A stretch of DNA of 24,613 nucleotides from a bacterium (Candidatus Ratteibacteria) CG_4_9_14_3_um_filter_41_21 (GCA_002791075.1 PFWI01000051.1:1-24613), one strand, 5' to 3'. Counted from the first letter of the stretch, positions 3,921 through 23,267 are shown. Made by a program: numbers and translations. Notes: a model not told the origin generated them from the sequence alone.

Positions 3921-4782
3921 AATTTCTGCTGAAAAAATTATCGCTGTAATTAGCCGGCTTTGCATCCAAAGCAATTGCCAAATTAATGAAGATTTAATCA
4001 CTTCCTTAAAACACGCCCGGGGAAAAGAGCAGGGGAGGGCAAGAATGGTGCTTGCTTCTATTTTAAAGAATATCAAAATTGCGCAAAGAGAGAAACTCCC
4101 GGTTTGCCAGGATACCGGAATGGCAATTGTCTTTCTGGAAATAGGGGATAAACTTAAAATTGATTTGGGAGAGTTTCTTTCCCTTTCCGCTCTTGTTCAG
4201 GAAGGTGTAAGAAGGGGCTATCAATCTGGGTATTTGCGTAAGTCAATAGTCGAGCCCTTATCCCGGGTTAACACCGAAGACAATACTCCGGCAATTATCC
4301 GCGAGAAGATTGTAGCCGGCAACCGTTTAAAAATTAAACTTTTAATCAAGGGCTTTGGCGCTGAGAATATGGCTAAAACCTCAATGTTGCGCCCTGATGC
4401 CGGCGAAGCAGGAATTAAAAGGTTTACTCTTGATTCCGTAAAGAAGGCGGGTTCCCATCCCTGTCCTCCCATGGTGATAGGAATAGGGATTGGCGGGACA
4501 ATGCAGAAAGCCGTCTCTCTGGCCGAAGAGGCTCTTTTAGAACCAGTTAAAAGTAAAAGGGCTTATTTTCGCGGGTGTCCTGGACTAAAAAGTAAAATTA
4601 AAAGATTAGAAGAAGAATTATTAAGGGAAATTAACCAATTAAATATTGGTCCGGCAGGATTGGGAGGGGAAACAACTGCTTTATCCGTAAAGATTAAAAC
4701 CTTCCCTACTCATATCGCTGGTTTGCCGGTGGCAGTCAATATTTCCTGCTGGGCAAATCGCCATCAGGAAATAATTCTATAA
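3913..4782 (+). CDS. Fe-S hydro-lyase, fumarate hydratase/L-tartrate dehydratase alpha subunit
   Basis: PVCQDTG, GYLRKSIV, KGFGAEN, PCPP.VIGIGIGGT, LGG.TTAL, THIAGLPVAVNISCWA.RH. Confidence 0.92.
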   Translation: MRKISAEKIIAVISRLCIQSNCQINEDLITSLKHARGKEQGRARMVLASILKNIKIAQREKLPVCQDTGMAIVFLEIGDKLKIDLGEFLSLSALVQEGVRRGYQSGYLRKSIVEPLSRVNTEDNTPAIIREKIVAGNRLKIKLLIKGFGAENMAKTSMLRPDAGEAGIKRFTLDSVKKAGSHPCPPMVIGIGIGGTMQKAVSLAEEALLEPVKSKRAYFRGCPGLKSKIKRLEEELLREINQLNIGPAGLGGETTALSVKIKTFPTHIAGLPVAVNISCWANRHQEIIL

Positions 4783-5315: not shown

Positions 5316-5586
5316 CCGCAGAGAAACACGGAGAACTTAATCGGACACAGATACACGTAGATTTACAGACTACCACGAAATCACGAAAAACTACAACATC
5401 TTTAACCACGAATTACACGAATTAATCGAATTCAAAAAACAATAATAAAGATTCTCTGACCGGATTTACAGGATTTTATTTTTATAATCCTGATTTTAAT
5501 CATGTTAATCCTGTCAAAAGTTTTAATTCGTGAAATTCGATAAATTCGTGGTTACATTGTTTTTCTTTGTGAATTTTCTGTGGTTA
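5313..5586. repeat. Nested cluster of imperfect inverted repeats with ~9-nt internal periodicity
   Basis: Outer pair 5313-5336 / 5561-5586, middle pair 5404-5432 / 5525-5553, inner pair 5457-5475 / 5486-5516. Unpaired half-elements at 5341-5370 and 5372-5389 have relatives at ~17623-17654 and 15422-15440. Confidence 0.8.
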
Positions 5587-8667: not shown

Positions 8668-9138
8668 GTGGCTATTGTCTATTTGGGAATTGGAACAAAC
8701 TTGGGAAGAAGGAGAAAGAATATTGAGACCGCTTTAAGATTATTAAAAAGGAAAAAGATCAAGATTAATCAAGTTTCTTTCTTTTTTAAGACAAGACCGG
8801 AAGAAGGGGTAAAAGGCTCCTATTTTCTTAACGGTGTGGCAGAGATAGAGACAGAATTGCCTCCTCAGAAACTTTTAAAATTTCTTAAAGAGACAGAAGA
8901 GCGCCTGGGGAGAAAAATAAATCATAAAAGAAAAGAGCCGCGGACAATTGATTTAGACATTCTTTTTTATAATTCCCTTATTTTGAATGAGCCTGACCTT
9001 ATTATTCCTCATCCAGGATTTAACAAGAGAAAATTTGTTTTAAGGCCCTTGAATGAAATTGCTCCATCTTTTAAGGACCCGGTAACCAGAAAAAAGATAG
9101 AGACCCTTTTTAAAGAAAATTGTAGTGCGAGGCTTTAG
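8668..9138 (+). CDS. folK: 2-amino-4-hydroxy-6-hydroxymethyldihydropteridine diphosphokinase
   Basis: VYLGIGTNLG, FLNGVAEI, E..LGR, PRTIDLDILFY, LIIPHP, RKFVLRPLNEIAP. Confidence 0.92.
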   Translation: MAIVYLGIGTNLGRRRKNIETALRLLKRKKIKINQVSFFFKTRPEEGVKGSYFLNGVAEIETELPPQKLLKFLKETEERLGRKINHKRKEPRTIDLDILFYNSLILNEPDLIIPHPGFNKRKFVLRPLNEIAPSFKDPVTRKKIETLFKENCSARL

Positions 9139-9144
9139 CCTCGC
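9122..9144 (+). repeat. REP-like GTAG + palindrome at the folK/panC junction
   Basis: GTAGT-GCGAGGCT-TT-AGCCTCGC, 8-bp perfect stem. Confidence 0.6.
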
Positions 9145-9151
9145 TAATAGG

Positions 9152-9991
9152 ATGAAGGTCATTAAGAAAAGCAAGGAATTACAAACTCTGATAGAGAGAG
9201 AAAAGAAGAAGGGAAAGATAATTGGCCTGGTTCCCACAATGGGGTATTTGCATTCCGGACACATTTCTCTGATTAAAAGAGCAAAAAAGGATTGCGGTAT
9301 AGTTGTGGTCAGTATTTATGTCAATCCAACGCAATTTGGGCCGGGAGAGGATTACCAAAGATACCCCCGGGATTTAGAAAGGGATAAGAAATTGGCTAAG
9401 GAAGCCGGAACCGACATTCTCTTTGTTCCTTCTGACGAGGAGATTTATCCGGACTCTTTTCATACCTATATCCAGGTAGAAGAGTTATCCGGGAGATTAT
9501 GCGGTGTTTCCCGGCCGATTCATTTCCGAGGGGTTGCCACAATTGTGGCAAAATTATTTAATATTGTTAAACCGACAAAAGCCTATTTTGGGTGGAAGGA
9601 TGCGCAGCAATTGATTATTCTTAAGAAAATGGTAAAAGATTTGAATATGGATGTTGAGGTTGTTGGCCTGCCCACGGTCAGGGAGAAGGATGGTTTAGCA
9701 ATAAGTTCCCGAAATAAATATTTAAGTAAACAGGAGAGAAAGATTGCTCCCATTCTTTACCAGGCTCTGGTTAAAGCGAAAAAAATGGTAAATTCCGGAG
9801 AGAACAACAGCGCCAGGGTTTTGCAGCAAGCAAAGGATTTGATTAAAAAAAAGAAAGGAGTAAAAATTGATTATCTCAAAGCCATAAATTTAATCGATTT
9901 AAAGGATGCTAAAAAGATAAAAAAGAATACCTTAATTGCAATAGCCGCCTGGATTGGAAAAACCAGATTAATTGATAATGTAATAATTTGA
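9152..9991 (+). CDS. panC: Pantoate--beta-alanine ligase
   Basis: VPTMGYLHSGH, SIYVNPTQFGP.ED...YPR, RPIHFRGVATIVAKLF, YFG.KD.QQ, REKDGLAISSRN, TRLIDN. ATG 9152 preferred because the upstream in-frame codons are the REP hairpin. Confidence 0.96.
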   Translation: MKVIKKSKELQTLIEREKKKGKIIGLVPTMGYLHSGHISLIKRAKKDCGIVVVSIYVNPTQFGPGEDYQRYPRDLERDKKLAKEAGTDILFVPSDEEIYPDSFHTYIQVEELSGRLCGVSRPIHFRGVATIVAKLFNIVKPTKAYFGWKDAQQLIILKKMVKDLNMDVEVVGLPTVREKDGLAISSRNKYLSKQERKIAPILYQALVKAKKMVNSGENNSARVLQQAKDLIKKKKGVKIDYLKAINLIDLKDAKKIKKNTLIAIAAWIGKTRLIDNVII

Positions 9992-10013
9992 TAGTATAGG
10001 AATTCCCTTTTTC

Positions 10014-10060
10014 CCTCTCCTCAATCCTCCCCCTCGAGGGGGAGGAGATAGGTCGGGGTG
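10014..10060. repeat. C-rich/G-rich hairpin repeat, copy 2
   Basis: Perfect 20-bp palindrome CCTCCCCCTCGAGGGGGAGG at 10026-10045, just after panC. Confidence 0.75.
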
Positions 10061-10064
10061 TAAT

Positions 10065-10094
10065 TTGATTTTTGATTAGAATCTACCGTATAAT
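10065..10094 (+). promoter_or_regulatory. Putative sigma70 promoter for the integrase
   Basis: TTGATT (10065-10070), 18-bp spacer, TATAAT (10089-10094). Confidence 0.55.
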
Positions 10095-10212
10095 GTTAAA
10101 GTTAGGTGTTAGTATTGAGGAATTGATAAAATAAATTTATGGCAAGCGTAAAATCGGTAAGAATATACAGGAGGGGGAAATTGTAGTTTCTTTCTCGTAC
10201 GATCCTAAATTT

Positions 10213-11316
10213 GTGGCTAAAGTTAAAACCATTGAGGGCCATAGGTGGCATCCGGATAAAAAGTATTGGAGCTTTCCTAATTCCAACGGAACTTTAGAAA
10301 AGATTTTAAAAGCTTTTGAAGGCGAGGAAATACATATAGACACAGCCTTACAAACTAAACTCACTTCCGTCATTGCGAGGGACGGGCTTCCTCGCTCGTC
10401 ATTGCGAGTCCCGATAAAATCGGGACGAAGCAATCTCAAGATAGGCTCGGAACAGGTTCCGCAATCTCAATTTGATGACCTTAAACGTGAACTTCTTTCA
10501 AGAAAATACAGCCATAAAACGGTCAAAGGTTATCTCTATTACAACAGAGATTTTCTGAGTTTTATAAACAAGAACCCCACTGAAGTTCAGGAAGGAGACA
10601 TAAAGGACTACCTTGTTCACCTCGCCGAAGAAAGACAGTCTGCCACGTCCACATTGAATCAGGCAATAAACGCCCTGAAGTTCTATTACGGGACCATGCT
10701 TAAGAAGAAGTTCATCTATGAAGTCGTAAGGCCGAGAAAGGACAAAATACTGCCGGAAGTCTTAAGTAAAGAAGAAGTCAGCCGCATTATAAAAAGCACA
10801 GCGAATATCAAGCACAAGGCAATTCTGATGACCATATACTCCGGTGGCCTGAGGCTTGGTGAAACAGCCCGACTGGAGCAGGCGCATCTTGACAGGGATA
10901 GAATGCTCGTCTTGGTAAAGGGAGCAAAAGGGAGAAAAGACAGGTATACACTTCTTTCCCCCAAAGCCCTGGAATTAATTGACCTGTATATTAAGCGGTA
11001 TGAACCCCGAAAGTGGCTTTTTGAAGGAGCAAAAGCAGGCAGGCATCTTTCGAAAAGGACGATAGAGAAGGTTTTCGATCAAGCCTGCGAGAGGACTGGC
11101 ATAAAGAAAGATGTGTCGGTTCATGACCTTCGGCATAGTTTCGCTACGCACTTGTTGGAATCCGGAGTTGATCTCAGATACATACAGGAACTGTTAGGCC
11201 ATGCCAGCAGTAAGACGACCGAAATATATACCCATGTCAGTACAAGGAGTTTGGGAGAAATACGAAGTCCGTTGGACAATCTCGATTTTGAAGGAGGCGA
11301 GAGTGACAAAACTTGA
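10213..11316 (+). CDS. Tyrosine recombinase/integrase (IntI/XerD-like, no IntI-specific insertion, extra N-terminal module); start uncertain
   Basis: Catalytic R (GLRLGE), K (KGAKGRKDR), HxxR (HDLRH), H (LLGH) and Y (IYTHV) intact. SAM-like domain R.YS.KT.K.Y...Q..NALKFYY. The frame stays open upstream to 10135 with no ATG. Confidence 0.92.
   Translation: MAKVKTIEGHRWHPDKKYWSFPNSNGTLEKILKAFEGEEIHIDTALQTKLTSVIARDGLPRSSLRVPIKSGRSNLKIGSEQVPQSQFDDLKRELLSRKYSHKTVKGYLYYNRDFLSFINKNPTEVQEGDIKDYLVHLAEERQSATSTLNQAINALKFYYGTMLKKKFIYEVVRPRKDKILPEVLSKEEVSRIIKSTANIKHKAILMTIYSGGLRLGETARLEQAHLDRDRMLVLVKGAKGRKDRYTLLSPKALELIDLYIKRYEPRKWLFEGAKAGRHLSKRTIEKVFDQACERTGIKKDVSVHDLRHSFATHLLESGVDLRYIQELLGHASSKTTEIYTHVSTRSLGEIRSPLDNLDFEGGESDKT
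10369..10437 (+). repeat. Palindromic GTCATTGCGAG...GAAGCAATCTC element inserted in frame in the integrase
   Basis: Two GTCATTGCGAG copies (10369, 10398), stem GTCCCGAT-AAA-ATCGGGAC (10408-10426), ending GAAGCAATCTC. Confidence 0.75.
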
Positions 11317-11400
11317 TGCAAGGAGAGAGGTTTCGCTCTTCGGATAGATGTAAAATAACCGCACCATGGTGCAGCTACAACCCCAATTTTGGGATAAATG

Positions 11401-11449
11401 TTGCACCTGAGTGCAATTGTGAACAAGTTATATGAAATTCGGCTTGGTA
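11401..11449 (+). other. attI-like recombination site / left cassette junction
   Basis: GTTATAT core at 11427. 11427-11449 is the reverse complement (22/23) of 13236-13258. 11412-11420 TGCAATTGT is the reverse complement of 13334-13342. Extra inverted repeat TTGCAC-CTGA-GTGCAA at 11401-11416. Confidence 0.7.
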
Positions 11450-11476
11450 GATTTTGTAAATTAGTGGAGATAGATT

Positions 11477-12529
11477 ATGAGAGATAAAACGAACACTTTG
11501 AGTTTATTCGGTAACGAATTGTTAATGCAGAAAGATGAGGAGAAAAAAGGTAGAACTAGCGAGAGGCTTGAGCGATTAGACCTTCATGGAGAATTACATA
11601 AAAAGATATTACCATTATGCAGGTTAAAATATGGAGATATATGGGAGGACCCAATTAATGGACATAAAGTTGGTGTATTAGATGCAACAAAACAGGAAGA
11701 TGTTAAAAAGATTGTGGGTAATGAAAAAGTCAGATTAGTTGTAAATGACCCGCCTTATAATGTAGCAGTGGGAAATGCAAATACAAACGCTCTCTTTAAA
11801 ATAAATATAGAAAAATATTTAGAGTTTTCAAAAGAATGGGTGCAAAATGTAATTTCAGTGACGGATAAAGATGCTCATTTTTATATATGGTTAGGTGCAG
11901 ATTATAGAGACAATCTTCAACCTCTTCCAGATTTTATTATCCTAATGAGAAAGTTTAAGGAATTAAGACCTAAAAATATTATTACCTTAAGAAATCAGAG
12001 AGGTTATGGAACACAAAAAAACTGGATGTGGGTCAGGCAGGAACTTCTTTATTATGTTAAAGGTAATCCAAATTTTAATGTATCTGCTGAATACACCGAC
12101 ATTCCTAAAATATTAAGAGGGTACTACAAAGAGGTAAATGGTAGGATTACAGAAAACTTGGAAAGAAGTAAATCAGAGTATATTAGGGCTGGTAATGTCT
12201 GGGTAGACATTCAGCAAGTATTCTATAGAATGGAAGAAAATGTCCCTGGTTGCTATGCCCAAAAACCTCTAAAGGCAATAGAAAGGATAATATTATCAGC
12301 GACAGATGAAAAAGATTTAGTTGTGGACTTCTTTGCTCATTCAGGAACAACCTTGATTGCTGGAGAAAGGTTAAAAAGGAAGGTTTATACATTTGATATT
12401 GACCCTATATTTGCTGAGATTACGATAAGGAGATTAGAGCATTTTAGGAGAACAGGGAAAACTGGATGGCAATGGCAAAATCCTTTCCCCCAATTGAAAG
12501 ATACAAAGGAGAGACAAAAATGGATTTAA
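11477..12529 (+). CDS. Amino-DNA methyltransferase (N6A/N4C), beta-class motif order
   Basis: Motif IV VVNDPPYN precedes motif I VVDFFAHSGTT; AQKPLKAIERII; preceded by GGAG. Confidence 0.9.
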   Translation: MRDKTNTLSLFGNELLMQKDEEKKGRTSERLERLDLHGELHKKILPLCRLKYGDIWEDPINGHKVGVLDATKQEDVKKIVGNEKVRLVVNDPPYNVAVGNANTNALFKINIEKYLEFSKEWVQNVISVTDKDAHFYIWLGADYRDNLQPLPDFIILMRKFKELRPKNIITLRNQRGYGTQKNWMWVRQELLYYVKGNPNFNVSAEYTDIPKILRGYYKEVNGRITENLERSKSEYIRAGNVWVDIQQVFYRMEENVPGCYAQKPLKAIERIILSATDEKDLVVDFFAHSGTTLIAGERLKRKVYTFDIDPIFAEITIRRLEHFRRTGKTGWQWQNPFPQLKDTKERQKWI

Positions 12530-13230
12530 AACAATTGAGACAATATTTGGAAAACCTCAGCGAGAACTTGAAACCCAAAAATCACCAATTGCTTACTGCA
12601 AGATTGGGCAGTTTAAAATCGGTTTTCCCTTTTAATGAATATGAGTACATTCTGATGTTTTTACGCGATAAAGAAATTATCACATTTCAGCAGTATGAAG
12701 AATTGAGAAAGAAATATGTATCTTCCAATCCATATTTAGAACTTTACGGGATTGCTCCTCGTACGTTTGGAGAAATATGGGGTCATCCTCATGTTATGGA
12801 TATAGATAACAGATTTAAAAAACCTAACAAGGAACTTGATTCCACTTACGAAGGCCAATATGATTTATGGTTTGAAGGTATAAAGGTAGAAATAAAAGCT
12901 TGCCGAGCAATAAATACTAAAAAGCGAGGCAATATAATGGAGAAGGCTTTAAGATACGATTCTGACGAGCCGTTTTGGATGAATTATCAACAGATTAAAG
13001 CGGATATGGCTGATGCTTTTGTTTTTATTGGTGTATGGGTAGATAAGATAGTATATTGGGTTATGTCTAAAAAAGAGATTAAGAAAAATAGATACTTGAG
13101 CCCTCAACATAGAGGGGGGATAGAATATCAAATAGGAATAACACATAAGAATATTAGCGAATTTGATGTTTACAAAGTAGAGCCGAACAAACTTGGAGAT
13201 GTAGTTCTCAAAAAGGGTAAAAGAAGATGA
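12520..13230 (+). CDS. Putative type II restriction endonuclease, PD-(D/E)XK fold
   Basis: QYDLWFEGIKVEIKACR fits PD-(D/E)XK; overlaps the MTase stop; SD AAGGAG before ATG 12520. Confidence 0.7.
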   Translation: MDLKQLRQYLENLSENLKPKNHQLLTARLGSLKSVFPFNEYEYILMFLRDKEIITFQQYEELRKKYVSSNPYLELYGIAPRTFGEIWGHPHVMDIDNRFKKPNKELDSTYEGQYDLWFEGIKVEIKACRAINTKKRGNIMEKALRYDSDEPFWMNYQQIKADMADAFVFIGVWVDKIVYWVMSKKEIKKNRYLSPQHRGGIEYQIGITHKNISEFDVYKVEPNKLGDVVLKKGKRR

Positions 13231-13235
13231 AATTG

Positions 13236-13333
13236 TACCAAGCCGAACTTCATATAACACGGTGTAAAAGACTTCGCTTCGCTCCGTCTAAATTCGGCTT
13301 TGCCGAACTTCTTTTACACCGAAACCGTTATCT
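13236..13333 (+). other. attC-like site
   Basis: R''-like ATATAAC (13252-13258), perfect 12-bp stem CGGTGTAAAAGA (13260-13271) / TCTTTTACACCG (13310-13321), inner hairpin TTCGGC-TTT-GCCGAA, R'-like GTTATCT (13327-13333). Confidence 0.7.
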
Positions 13334-13451
13334 ACAATTGCAGGCAAGGTTGGCTAATATAAAAAGAGAAAGAGTGGGGGAGAATGCTTTCAAATATAAG
13401 TAAATTTACAGAAAATATTGGGTATCCTGAAGATTTTATCAATAAAATAAA

Positions 13452-13480
13452 GTGATAAAAATGGCGAAACGGTGTATAAT
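13452..13480 (+). promoter_or_regulatory. Putative sigma70 promoter upstream of panD-lnt
   Basis: GTGATA (13452-13457), 17-bp spacer, TATAAT (13475-13480). Confidence 0.45.
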
Positions 13481-13607
13481 ACAACATAGAAGGTTTACTC
13501 TTCGGGACTAGAGCAAACGTGATAAGTCCCATTAGGCACAATGCCAGGGTTTAAAGAGAAAGAGTAAAATATTATTTCAGGAGAACTTAACTGTTACCTA
13601 TTAAATT

Positions 13608-13958
13608 ATGCAGAGAATTATTTTAAAGTCAAAGATTTCAGAGACGACTGTTACGGATACCAAACTTCATTATTCAGGCAGCATCACCATTGATGAGGGA
13701 TTAGCCGAAAGTGCGGATATTTTTCCCGGGGAAAATGTTCAGGTGCTGAATTTGAATAATGGGGCGCGAGTAGAAACTTACTACATCAAAGGAAAACGCA
13801 ATTCCGGGATTGTTTGTATCAACGGGGCGGCGGCGCGCTGGTTCGAAAAAGGGGACAAAATTATTATTCTTTCTTACGGGATTTTCGGGGACGAAGAAGC
13901 AAAAAAATTCAAACCGAAAATTATTAGAGTTGATGAAAAGAACAGGGAGATAGAGTAG
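13608..13958 (+). CDS. panD: Aspartate 1-decarboxylase proenzyme
   Basis: [18 protein letters not shown] self-cleavage site, [26 protein letters not shown]. Confidence 0.93.
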
Positions 13959-13963
13959 GGGTA

Positions 13964-15454
13964 ATGAAAAAGAGCATATTCTTCTCCATCCTCTCTGGTT
14001 TACTCCTCATTCTTGCCTTTCCTAAATTTGACTGCGAAATCGTAGCCTGGTTTGCTTTAATTCCCCTTTTTCTGGCGATCCGTGATTTTCGGTATTCTTT
14101 CTTTTCAGGTTATCTCTTTGGTCTCATCTTTTTCGGAGGAAGCCTTTTCTGGCTCGCCAATGTTACCCGAATAGGTTTTCTCGTCTTGATTCTTTATCTT
14201 TCCCTATATCCCGGGCTCTTTGCCTTTCTTTTCACTAAATGGAATCTTCCGGCTAAAAATTTTTTTGGCGCAGGGCTCTGGATTCTTTTAGAATACGTTG
14301 AAAGTCATTTCCTTACCGGTTTCCCCTGGTTGCTTCTGGGATACTCTCAATATAAAAATTTAAGATTTATTCAAATTTCCTCAATTTTTGGCGCCTACAT
14401 TGTCTCTGGTCTTGTTGTGCTGATTAATATCGGTTTAAGCCAACTTTTCTTCAAACAGAAAAAGAGCATCGCAACAAAAATGCCGAAGGTTTCCATTGCT
14501 TTGTCCTTTTTTATCCTTTTACTCGCTTTCTTTTTTGGCATTGGTCAAATGAAAAAGATTTCCGGAATTACCGCAAAAGAGATAAAAGTATCGTTGGTTC
14601 AGGGCAATATTCCTTCGCTTCAGAAATGGGAAACTTTCTCCAAAGAAAAAAATATCAAGATTTATTCTGCCCTCACCGAAAAAGCAGCCAAAAATAATCC
14701 TGATCTGGTTATCTGGCCGGAAAGCGCGATTAGTACCTATTTGAAATTGGACCGACCAATCCAAAAGCGTCTTTTTGAATTAGCCAAAGCAAAGAAATTT
14801 TATCTTCTCGCCGGTTCGTTGGACCAACGAAGCGGCAAAAACTATAATAGCGCTTTTTTAATTTCTCCTCAGGGACGAATCAAGGATACTTATGACAAGA
14901 TTCATCTGGTTCCTTACGGAGAATATGTTTTAGGGGGAGAATCTTTCCCTTTCCTGAAAAGGTTTGTGGCGAAAGCGGCTGGTTTTATTCCTGATTTTAG
15001 TCCAGGAGAAAATTACACAATCTTCTCTTTACCTGAAGGAAATTTTGCTACTTTAATCTGCTTTGAGGATATTTTTTCGGAACTTTCCCGAAGATTTACT
15101 AAAAAAGGAGCAAACTTTTTGGTTAATATTACTGATGATAGTTGGTTTGGGGATTTTGGCGCTTCTCAGCATTTTGCCGCTGCTGTTTTCCGGGCGGTAG
15201 AAAATAGGAGATATCTTCTACGGACCGCAAACACCGGGCTTTCAGCTATTATTGCTCCCTGGGGGGAAATCTTAAAAAAAGTAGAGGAAAATGGTAAAAA
15301 ACTCTTTGTCTCCGGTTTCTTGGTTGGGGAAATTAAGCCGGTTTCCTCTTTAAGTTTTTATACTAAATTTGGCGATGCTCCTTTAATTCTTCTTTGTATA
15401 GGATTGATCGTTGTTTTAATTACCACGAAATTACGAAAATTAAACAAGTTATAA
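13964..15454 (+). CDS. lnt: Apolipoprotein N-acyltransferase
   Basis: Multi-TM N-terminus, TGFPW.LLGYSQ, VQGNI, nitrilase triad WPES / YDKIHLVPYGE / LICFED, NITDDSWFG, RTANTGLSA. Confidence 0.95.
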   Translation: MKKSIFFSILSGLLLILAFPKFDCEIVAWFALIPLFLAIRDFRYSFFSGYLFGLIFFGGSLFWLANVTRIGFLVLILYLSLYPGLFAFLFTKWNLPAKNFFGAGLWILLEYVESHFLTGFPWLLLGYSQYKNLRFIQISSIFGAYIVSGLVVLINIGLSQLFFKQKKSIATKMPKVSIALSFFILLLAFFFGIGQMKKISGITAKEIKVSLVQGNIPSLQKWETFSKEKNIKIYSALTEKAAKNNPDLVIWPESAISTYLKLDRPIQKRLFELAKAKKFYLLAGSLDQRSGKNYNSAFLISPQGRIKDTYDKIHLVPYGEYVLGGESFPFLKRFVAKAAGFIPDFSPGENYTIFSLPEGNFATLICFEDIFSELSRRFTKKGANFLVNITDDSWFGDFGASQHFAAAVFRAVENRRYLLRTANTGLSAIIAPWGEILKKVEENGKKLFVSGFLVGEIKPVSSLSFYTKFGDAPLILLCIGLIVVLITTKLRKLNKL

Positions 15455-15542
15455 AACCACGAATTTATCGAATTTTACGAATTAGAGTAATTCGCGTTAA
15501 TTCGTGGTTAGAAAAAGGAAATTCCTATGGTATTAAATTATG
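15444..15542 (+). repeat. 99-bp repeat, copy A (inverted duplicate of 23169-23267)
   Basis: 15444-15529 is the exact reverse complement of 23182-23267; two mismatches follow, then 11 more matching bases. Internal CGAATT-unit hairpin. Confidence 0.9.
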
Positions 15543-23168: not shown

Positions 23169-23267
23169 CATAATTTAATTGCATAGGAATTTCCTTTTTC
23201 TAACCACGAATTAACGCGAATTACTCTAATTCGTAAAATTCGATAAATTCGTGGTTTTATAACTTGT
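23169..23267 (-). repeat. 99-bp repeat, copy B (inverted duplicate of 15444-15542)
   Basis: Base-by-base comparison gives 97/99 identity; begins at the last codons of the upstream gene, as copy A does. Confidence 0.9.

Follow-up and report, generated by a model that had tools for sequence, protein, structure and literature searches.

A probable integron-like gene-cassette platform with an insert-less integrase in the panC-panD region of a Ratteibacteria chromosome

Described systems and the platform at panC-panD

An insertion specific to the integron integrase IntI is held to be needed for recombination of folded attC sites, and tools for integron detection require this insertion. Here, we analyzed a locus at positions 9992-13607 of a 24,613-nt stretch of DNA (PFWI01000051.1:1-24613 of assembly GCA_002791075.1, called the window throughout) from Candidatus Ratteibacteria CG_4_9_14_3_um_filter_41_21. 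The locus is very probably a chromosomal gene-cassette platform that works like an integron and is served by an Xer-sized relative of IntI without the insertion. In the literature searched, we found no published description of insert-less integrases heading attC arrays.

The platform shares several features with the classical integrons of IntI1 (class 1) and of VchIntIA, the integrase of the Vibrio cholerae chromosomal integron. A tyrosine recombinase lies beside its own attI, and the crossover falls at the G/TT of a GTTRRRY-like core. Each cassette terminates in an imperfect palindrome whose R''/R' and L''/L' boxes pair and are conserved more in structure than in sequence. Cassettes within an array share one orientation, and the site is found empty, occupied, or with its cassette replaced. 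However, about 41 residues of the IntI insertion are missing from the platform enzyme, which has an extra N-terminal module. Its gene is co-oriented with the cassettes, with attI after the stop codon, whereas the classical attI lies upstream of a divergent gene. The platform attC also differs from the classical one in its perfect 12-bp L stem, its lack of extrahelical bases, its asymmetric 1-nt/5-nt loop, and the 20-29 nt of extra pairing outside the R box. The array in the window is a single two-gene cassette, and multi-cassette arrays occur at homologous loci.

In the "inverted" integrons of the Treponema denticola type, the integrase has the same direction as the cassette array, as in the platform. 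Integrases of this type are reported to possess the IntI insertion and to be recognized by IntI profiles, whereas the platform enzyme has no such insertion. The CTX phage, one of the integrative mobile elements exploiting Xer (IMEX), integrates via a folded single-stranded site using host Xer. Xer-dependent modules (IMEX and pdif) resemble the platform in that the recombinase is Xer-sized without the IntI insertion and short sites bound the gene modules. They differ in using host XerC/D at dif or pdif, whereas the platform has a dedicated accessory recombinase with its own site. The pdif modules of Acinetobacter plasmids are Xer-dependent (PMC7399989). For archaeal integrons, Ghaly et al. 2022 described putative attI sites immediately downstream of intI with the canonical insertion point, and most archaeal arrays had no detectable IntI, that is, they were attC clusters with no integron integrase (CALINs). 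Only integrases matching the IntI-specific domain profile were accepted in that work (PMC9668308). The platform family differs in that it is without this domain. With IntegronFinder 2.0, a single complete integron was reported in Firmicutes and Nitrospira yielded CALINs only; integrons were reported nearly absent from Firmicutes, Bacteroidota, and many uncultured phyla (PMC9024848). We attribute this scarcity partly to the requirement of the tools for the insertion.

Alleles, cassette ends, and attachment sites

At least six states occur at this one chromosomal locus in a near-clonal aquifer population. The alleles were found by looking up the exact panD and integrase proteins in public assemblies (JGI, ENA with two assemblers, NCBI, and Logan). 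Their flanks were at least 99.6% identical, with 0-5 differences in 1250 nt and 1-3 differences in 6300 nt relative to the window. The parts of the platform in the window, followed by the alleles, are:

10139-11316, + strand: tyrosine recombinase (integrase) gene, 392 aa from the ATG at 10139 in alleles with an A5 tract
11345-11431, + strand: attI-like site directly after the integrase stop, with palindromic box 1 (11361-11372), central palindrome CCCCAATTTTGGG (11381-11393), box 2 (11401-11416), and core GTTAT (11427-11431)
11428-13327, + strand: cassette A, 1900 bp between two GTTAT cores
11477-12529, + strand: type II DNA methyltransferase (N6/N4), with an alternative start at 11525 in other gene calls
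12520-13230, + strand: type II restriction endonuclease (236 aa), whose first 10 nt overlap the end of the methylase gene
13252-13333, + strand: attC-like hairpin, 82 nt, with R'' (13252-13258), L'' (13260-13271), L' (13310-13321), and R' (13327-13333)
13334-13341: right arm of the empty site, ACAATTGC, inverted relative to 11412-11419

Empty allele (L094, L095, L115): 391 nt from integrase stop to panD, identical to the window minus 1900 bp
Allele A (window, L096, L122): type II methylase and endonuclease
Allele B (L090-L093, L098, L121): 2813-bp cassette with a different methylase, an R.Pab1-like endonuclease, and a second methylase
Allele D (L116, L117): 306-aa open reading frame (ORF) after the core
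Allele E (L119): another distinct sequence after the core
Allele F (L118): starts GTTAAGT

The site was thus found precisely empty, occupied, and with the occupant replaced by an unrelated cassette. Cassette B had no blastn similarity to cassette A, and it terminates in its own hairpin with the same geometry. When empty and filled alleles are compared, any position of the cut within GTTAT fits. Since allele F reads GTTAA, the crossover lies inside GTTA or to its left. In L097 (1-1100), cassette B comes after another cassette, which has a 239-aa ORF and an attC of its own, and in L099 (1-130) it comes after a different version of attI. The same panD flank follows cassette B in each, which represents either real array diversity or assembly chimeras.

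A preliminary description of this DNA had listed a recombinase, a core, a two-gene cassette, and an attC-like hairpin, and all of these are present on the + strand within 9992-13607, as is the attI-like site. The two-gene content of the cassette was confirmed, with the start of the second gene corrected to 12520, giving the 236-aa type II endonuclease. The methyltransferase matched Pfam N6_N4_Mtase (3.6e-28) and PADLOC MTase_II (4e-27). The endonuclease matched PADLOC REase_II PDLC03414 (4e-47), and no Pfam or NCBIfam match was found for it. By these matches, the cargo of cassette A is a complete type II restriction-modification (R-M) system, methylase and endonuclease together. The G+C content over cassette A is 0.32-0.36, down from about 0.40-0.45.

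Logan contigs of four sequencing runs break at 11427-11431 and at 13326-13332. In these runs, the depth of cassette A was about one-third to one-half that of both flanks (48.6 vs 105-155, 7.7 vs 15-16, about 45-52 vs 144-148, and 11-19 vs 27-32). Among the contigs listed for these runs, none joined 11431 directly to 13327, though contigs cannot show absence; the empty form was seen in the public assemblies. Up to 16 other contigs per run contain a hairpin more than 90% alike. One contig of run X10 joins 13326 to 11427 with 10 extra letters at a depth of 12.8, which could be a tandem form, a circle-derived form, or a related array.

The GTTAT core of the attI-like site recurs at 13327-13331. 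The layout of the attI-like site was aligned across 13 loci of bacteria and archaea (Nitrospirota, Deltaproteobacteria, WOR-3, Atribacterota, Thermodesulfobacteria, Micrarchaeota, Altiarchaeota, Methanosarcinales, and Hydrothermarchaeales). AGTTA was invariant, and the box sequences were specific to each lineage. Homologous integrases at 40-76% identity keep the same downstream site.

The attC-like hairpin consists of R'' (ATATAAC), 1 unpaired nt, a perfect 12-bp stem, 5 unpaired nt, and R' (GTTATCT), with an inner hairpin (13293-13307) in its loop. It therefore has the four boxes R'', L'', L', and R', with compensated changes between cassettes, together with an asymmetric 1/5-nt spacer, an extra outer stem, and no extrahelical bases. 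A scan for this shape found one such site in the 24.6-kb window. In the 1.46-Mb genome, the scan gave 29 loose matches, among which only the site of the window has the signature. The 58-aa ORF at 13227-13403 merely covers the hairpin. The inner hairpin followed by CTTCTTTT (13293-13316) is terminator-like. Since attCs at related loci have this arrangement too, transcription may stop at the end of each cassette. Elsewhere in the same genome, the 8-kb contig C33 contains two attC-family sites (L101 and L102, at 4081-4169 and 5502-5579) flanking a 425-aa ORF. This pair is CALIN-like, with no integrase on the contig. The first of its sites has the same stem as the attC of cassette B and a mutated R' (GTCAA).

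The ends of the cassettes are modular and circle-like. The start of cassette A (11427-11455) is complementary to 13230-13258, forming a 29-nt inverted repeat at 90%, and in the circular cassette this start supplies the outer stem of the attC. At the rejoined junction of cassette A, the bottom strand folds at -38.5 kcal/mol (z -9.7) and the top strand at -33.4 kcal/mol. For cassette B, the values are -34.3 and -30.4 kcal/mol, respectively. Across 28 cassettes, the first 24 nt after R' were compared with the 24 nt before the R'' of the same cassette, giving a mean complement score of 8.3. The score was 4.7 for ends of different cassettes (p = 2.5e-10) and 4.9 when these came from the same array (p = 2e-7). 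This complementarity of own ends is as predicted by a circular intermediate cut at the core.

In an alignment of 12 attC sites gathered by a scan that demands pairing, 94% of cells were paired and 14 of 19 pairs had changed on both sides, well exceeding the shuffled and slid controls. The limits of cassettes A and B come from the edges of the indels and not from pairing, and these two cassettes have three compensated differences in the 12-bp stem. The left arms of attI and attC share little sequence. We considered whether the 276-nt tail preceding panD contains another attC or a degenerate copy of attI, and rejected both. Folds of the tail were non-significant (z -1.4 to -1.8), an alignment of 11290-11460 with 13440-13610 showed no real similarity, and the attC covariance model gave no match in the tail.

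The integrase, its family, and the surrounding locus

The recombinase matches Pfam Phage_integrase PF00589 (5.8e-39, 134 bits) and Phage_int_SAM_4, a SAM-like core-binding domain. Its catalytic R..H-x-x-R..H..Y set is present, with GLRLGE, HDLRHS, LGH, and IYTH aligning with VchIntIA and XerA. The preliminary description had pointed to an XerD-like spacing of 55 aa between KDRYTLL and HDLRH and to a missing IntI insertion. The spacing is exactly 55 aa in the translation, and the IntI-specific insertion of about 41-42 aa, around patch III and including the I2 helix, is absent. The alignment to VchIntIA (2a3v) splits, with query residues 251 to 277 set against IntI residues 172 to 240, and the alignment to XerA (5hxy) is contiguous. 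The IntI model TIGR02249 matched at positions 3-178 and 235-315 and skipped positions 179-234, with 15 query residues in between.

The enzyme scored 205 bits against the cut-off of 265 for TIGR02249 and 148 against 435 for NF011946. The XerC and XerD models gave 186 and 183 bits, respectively, so that both curated equivalog cut-offs (335 and 330) were missed. Housekeeping genes for XerD (355 bits) and an XerC-like protein (318 bits) lie elsewhere in the genome, and the integrase scores far below both on the XerC/XerD models. On the IntI model, its 205 bits exceed the 131-144 bits of the true Xer proteins of the genome (XerD, 144). The control genomes scanned with this model had no true IntI among them. 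NF040815, a model for XerA/"integron integrase", was passed at 227 bits against a cut-off of 220. This match is non-discriminating because the true XerD and XerC-like proteins of the genome pass too (235 and 234 bits). The expectation that standard tools would miss the integrase was examined through the NCBIfam cut-offs, and the enzyme falls below those for IntI. The PGAP family name already includes "integron integrase", but the underlying model NF040815 also takes in true XerC/XerD.

The integrase gene is present and co-oriented with the cassette, as described earlier, but the copy in the window is frameshifted. An A4 tract at 10150-10153 puts the ATG at 10139 out of frame, and the longest integrase ORF in the window runs from a GTG at 10213 to 11316 (367 aa). 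Alleles with A5 are intact (392 aa). The tract is polymorphic in the population: the window and L090-L093 carry A4, with the N-terminal module frameshifted, and the intact allele occurs with all cassette states. Two further features lie in the 5' part of the gene:

10139-10355, + strand: N-terminal module of about 70 aa ahead of the core-binding domain, with W37 and W44 invariant in the family
10369-10437, + strand: palindromic repeat element, read in frame, in the linker that joins the N-terminal module to the core-binding domain

The N-terminal module is strongly conserved in an alignment of the family, and its AlphaFold model has a predicted local distance difference test score of 87. The model matches the N-terminal damage-recognition domain (DRD) of archaeal XPB with Z 7.0 and a root-mean-square deviation of 2.0 over 59 aa, and the HARP domain of SMARCAL1 (4o66) with Z 4.2 and a Foldseek probability of 0.97. 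A Foldseek search with the module gave no match at E <= 0.001, and the best Z was 7.0. One homologue, P0059, passes the Pfam HARP cut-off at 26.1 bits. These model comparisons are suggestive of a HARP/XPB-DRD-like fold. The linker repeat is absent from most homologues. It exists in multiple copies in the community, at a depth up to 10x that of the flanks, and depth spikes and numerous loose ends are seen at 10398-10437. A contig of run X24 leaves out 10331-10485.

More than 8000 homologues of the integrase were scored, the best 120 at 55-99% identity. We surveyed 80 genome loci with integrases at 40-66% identity. Across the family, integrase, attI, and a co-oriented hairpin array occur together. 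Hairpin-scan matches had a density of 0.205 per kb downstream of the integrase against 0.042 per kb upstream, a difference of about 5-fold. A covariance model, R1, built from 12 sites, was searched against 680 kb around homologous integrases. It gave 34 matches, 22 of them new; all 34 were on the integrase strand, and 33 were downstream. Generic palindromic boxes were not discriminating (2.5 downstream vs 2.1 upstream of homologous integrases). Contigs ended at most 420 nt after the integrase stop in 34 of 79 cases, several exactly at GTTA, and only 8 of 80 started at most 420 nt before the gene. Archaea, among them Micrarchaeota and Altiarchaeota, also have family members with hairpin arrays. 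In the cultured Firmicute Desulfitobacterium sp. Sab5, the complete genome contains 44 model matches. In this genome, 29 matches are co-oriented in the 44 kb directly behind the integrase (L033, NZ_CP172056.1, about 2,392,292-2,438,539), and 15 further sites lie in small clusters elsewhere.

A truncated member of the family is found on the A. baumannii plasmid p34AB (L127, NZ_MK134375.1 5319-7340). It has 221 aa at 47.6% identity to residues 112-362, is co-oriented with tet(X3) 189 nt upstream of it, and is enclosed by two ISVsa3 copies. The tet(X3) start codon is directly preceded by a palindromic box plus the core GTTATGT. The "xerD" (tpnF-like) gene adjoining tet(X) genes has been noted, with its role left open (PMC7473080). 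This case differs from the platform in that the integrase is truncated and the unit is carried by ISVsa3 copies, and the published reading is not that of a cassette platform.

The platform sits among housekeeping genes, with folK, lnt, rnc, and yidC nearby. Its neighbors and remaining features are:

9125-9991: panC, left neighbor of the platform
10065-10094, + strand: promoter-like site TTGATT-18-TATAAT, 10/12 matches, 5' of the integrase
13332-13607, + strand: fixed tail from the core to panD, 276 nt, common to all alleles
13452-13480, + strand: promoter-like site in the tail
13608-13958: panD, right neighbor of the platform

In the two same-family relatives with contigs long enough to cover the region, panC and panD are adjacent with a spacer of about 43 nt. 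The spacer contains TTGATT..TATAAT and ends with CGTTATG at the panD start. Because panC and panD adjoin in these relatives, the whole platform is an insertion in the lineage of the window. Integrase matches at E <= 1e-40 were found in 4 of 40 relatives and in none of 3 same-family genomes. The promoter named in the preliminary description has its hexamers at 10065-10094. However, these align with the hexamers of the panC-panD spacer of the relatives, and promoter-like matches in the region are no commoner than in shuffled sequence.

The left edge of the platform reads GTTAGGT (10097-10107), and the relatives have CGTTATG at the panD start (corresponding to the 13585-13607 region). Speculatively, a secondary GTTA site may have served as the entry point of the integrase unit itself. 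A G+C-rich hairpin after panC (10013-10067) is multi-copy in the community, with a depth up to 10x that of the flanks and many loose ends. Further downstream, a 99-nt inverted pair (15444-15542 and 23169-23267) represents two copies of a dispersed repeat with at least 32 copies in the genome. The 5' boundary of this repeat is always CAAGTTAT, and this overlaps with the core string of attI, ACAAGTTAT; the copies may be secondary-site insertions. In other assemblies, the 7.6-kb segment between the 99-nt repeats was not seen inverted.

Mechanism, alternatives, and significance

At GTTA, beside this integrase, cassettes are shown by the alleles to be gained, lost, and replaced site-specifically. 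In the mechanism that we propose, circular cassettes, each with one long imperfect hairpin site, would be inserted and excised by site-specific recombination within GTTA. The adjacent integrase is the probable catalyst, since gene and site invariably adjoin and the box sequences differ between integrase lineages. The hairpin would be used as folded single-stranded DNA of the bottom strand; this is suggested by the conserved structure, the fixed strand, and the greater stability of the bottom strand. We hypothesize that the N-terminal module stands in for the missing I2-containing insertion in recognizing structured DNA. Cassettes would be transcribed by read-through from upstream. The integron-like capture system put forward in the preliminary description is supported. 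Homologues are tied to attC-like arrays, the cargo varies (empty, A, B, and three other continuations at one locus), and the IntI insertion is missing.

Several points weigh against this reading. The frameshift near the start of the integrase in the window may mean that the cassette is frozen in this genome. The link from enzyme to recombination events is drawn from adjacency and lineage-specific boxes. A mechanism on double-stranded DNA is possible, and with no extrahelical bases in the site, the strand choice of classical IntI cannot be assumed. The covariation statistic is biased by the pairing-demanding scan through which its sites were gathered. All fold matches of the modeled N-terminal module have Z below 8 and are suggestive. 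Some of the metagenome alleles, above all L097 and L099, could be chimeras formed at shared cassettes.

The same platform and enzyme could act by ordinary double-stranded site-specific recombination, in which a circular element with a duplex site recombines with a duplex attI in the manner of small integrative elements, and the hairpin would serve as a terminator or as paired binding arms. We consider this unlikely, though it is the alternative to be taken most seriously. An enzyme without the I2-containing insertion that IntI uses on folded attC would fit it, as would the empty site, a conventional-looking core with inverted arms around GTTAT. The stem without extrahelical bases and the terminator-like inner hairpin with its T-run also agree with duplex recombination. 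However, stem sequences vary between cassettes while the pairing and the 1-nt/5-nt asymmetry are retained, all 34 model matches lie on one strand, and the rejoined bottom strand folds better than the top strand for both cassettes. The little sequence shared by the left arms of attI and attC also argues against a duplex reaction.

Mobilization by host XerC/XerD, with IMEX- or pdif-like elements and the adjacent recombinase as a passenger or regulator, is improbable. The genome does have housekeeping XerD and XerC-like genes, and the integrase copy in the window is frameshifted. Xer enzymes are known to use the folded single-stranded site of a phage. They also use pdif modules (PMC7399989). Against a role of host Xer, the attachment site always lies directly 3' of the integrase gene with boxes that differ by integrase lineage in bacteria and archaea, the platform is absent from relatives that possess Xer, and intact 392-aa alleles are seen with all cassette states. 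An assembly artefact, in which a shared repeat fused sequences of different organisms into chimeric alleles, has very little probability. All of the data are metagenomic, the hairpin family is multi-copy in the community, and L097 and L099 join cassette B to other upstream sequences. Yet the same junctions recur in independent JGI, ENA (two assemblers), NCBI, and Logan assemblies with long, near-identical flanks on both sides, and the depth of cassette A is consistently a fraction of that of both flanks in four runs. We regard as negligible the chance that the R-M genes form an invertible, phase-variable segment flipping between 29-nt inverted repeats. The repeats at 11427-11455 and 13230-13258 do flank R-M genes beside a tyrosine recombinase, but they are accounted for as the outer stem of the site of the circular cassette. 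We rejected inversion on finding no inverted form in any assembly, only precise deletion and unrelated replacements.

The integron-like reading can be extended to the family, and here the evidence tips us slightly toward a second, very widespread integron lineage in which the insertion was never acquired or was lost. Such a lineage would have a differently shaped folded attC, recognized with the aid of a structure-specific, DNA-binding N-terminal module like HARP/XPB-DRD, and would be active in nature in shuffling defense systems, as with the R-M cassettes here. Many published CALINs and the tet(X) "xerD" would belong to it. It would extend through groups for which integrons have been reported as rare or absent, namely Firmicutes, Bacteroidota, Nitrospirota, candidate phyla, and DPANN archaea.

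The locus is a natural experiment: in a near-clonal groundwater population, one site next to an insert-less integrase is empty or carries different whole R-M systems. The contribution of the window is this set of natural empty, filled, and swapped alleles within one population. Should the enzyme prove to be the catalyst, integron integrases would need a wider definition, and a large reservoir of cassette genes for defense and resistance, such as tet(X), would have been missed by surveys. An I2-less form would then allow tests of how single-strand recombination evolved in tyrosine recombinases, and cultured carriers such as Desulfitobacterium sp. Sab5 are available for experiments.

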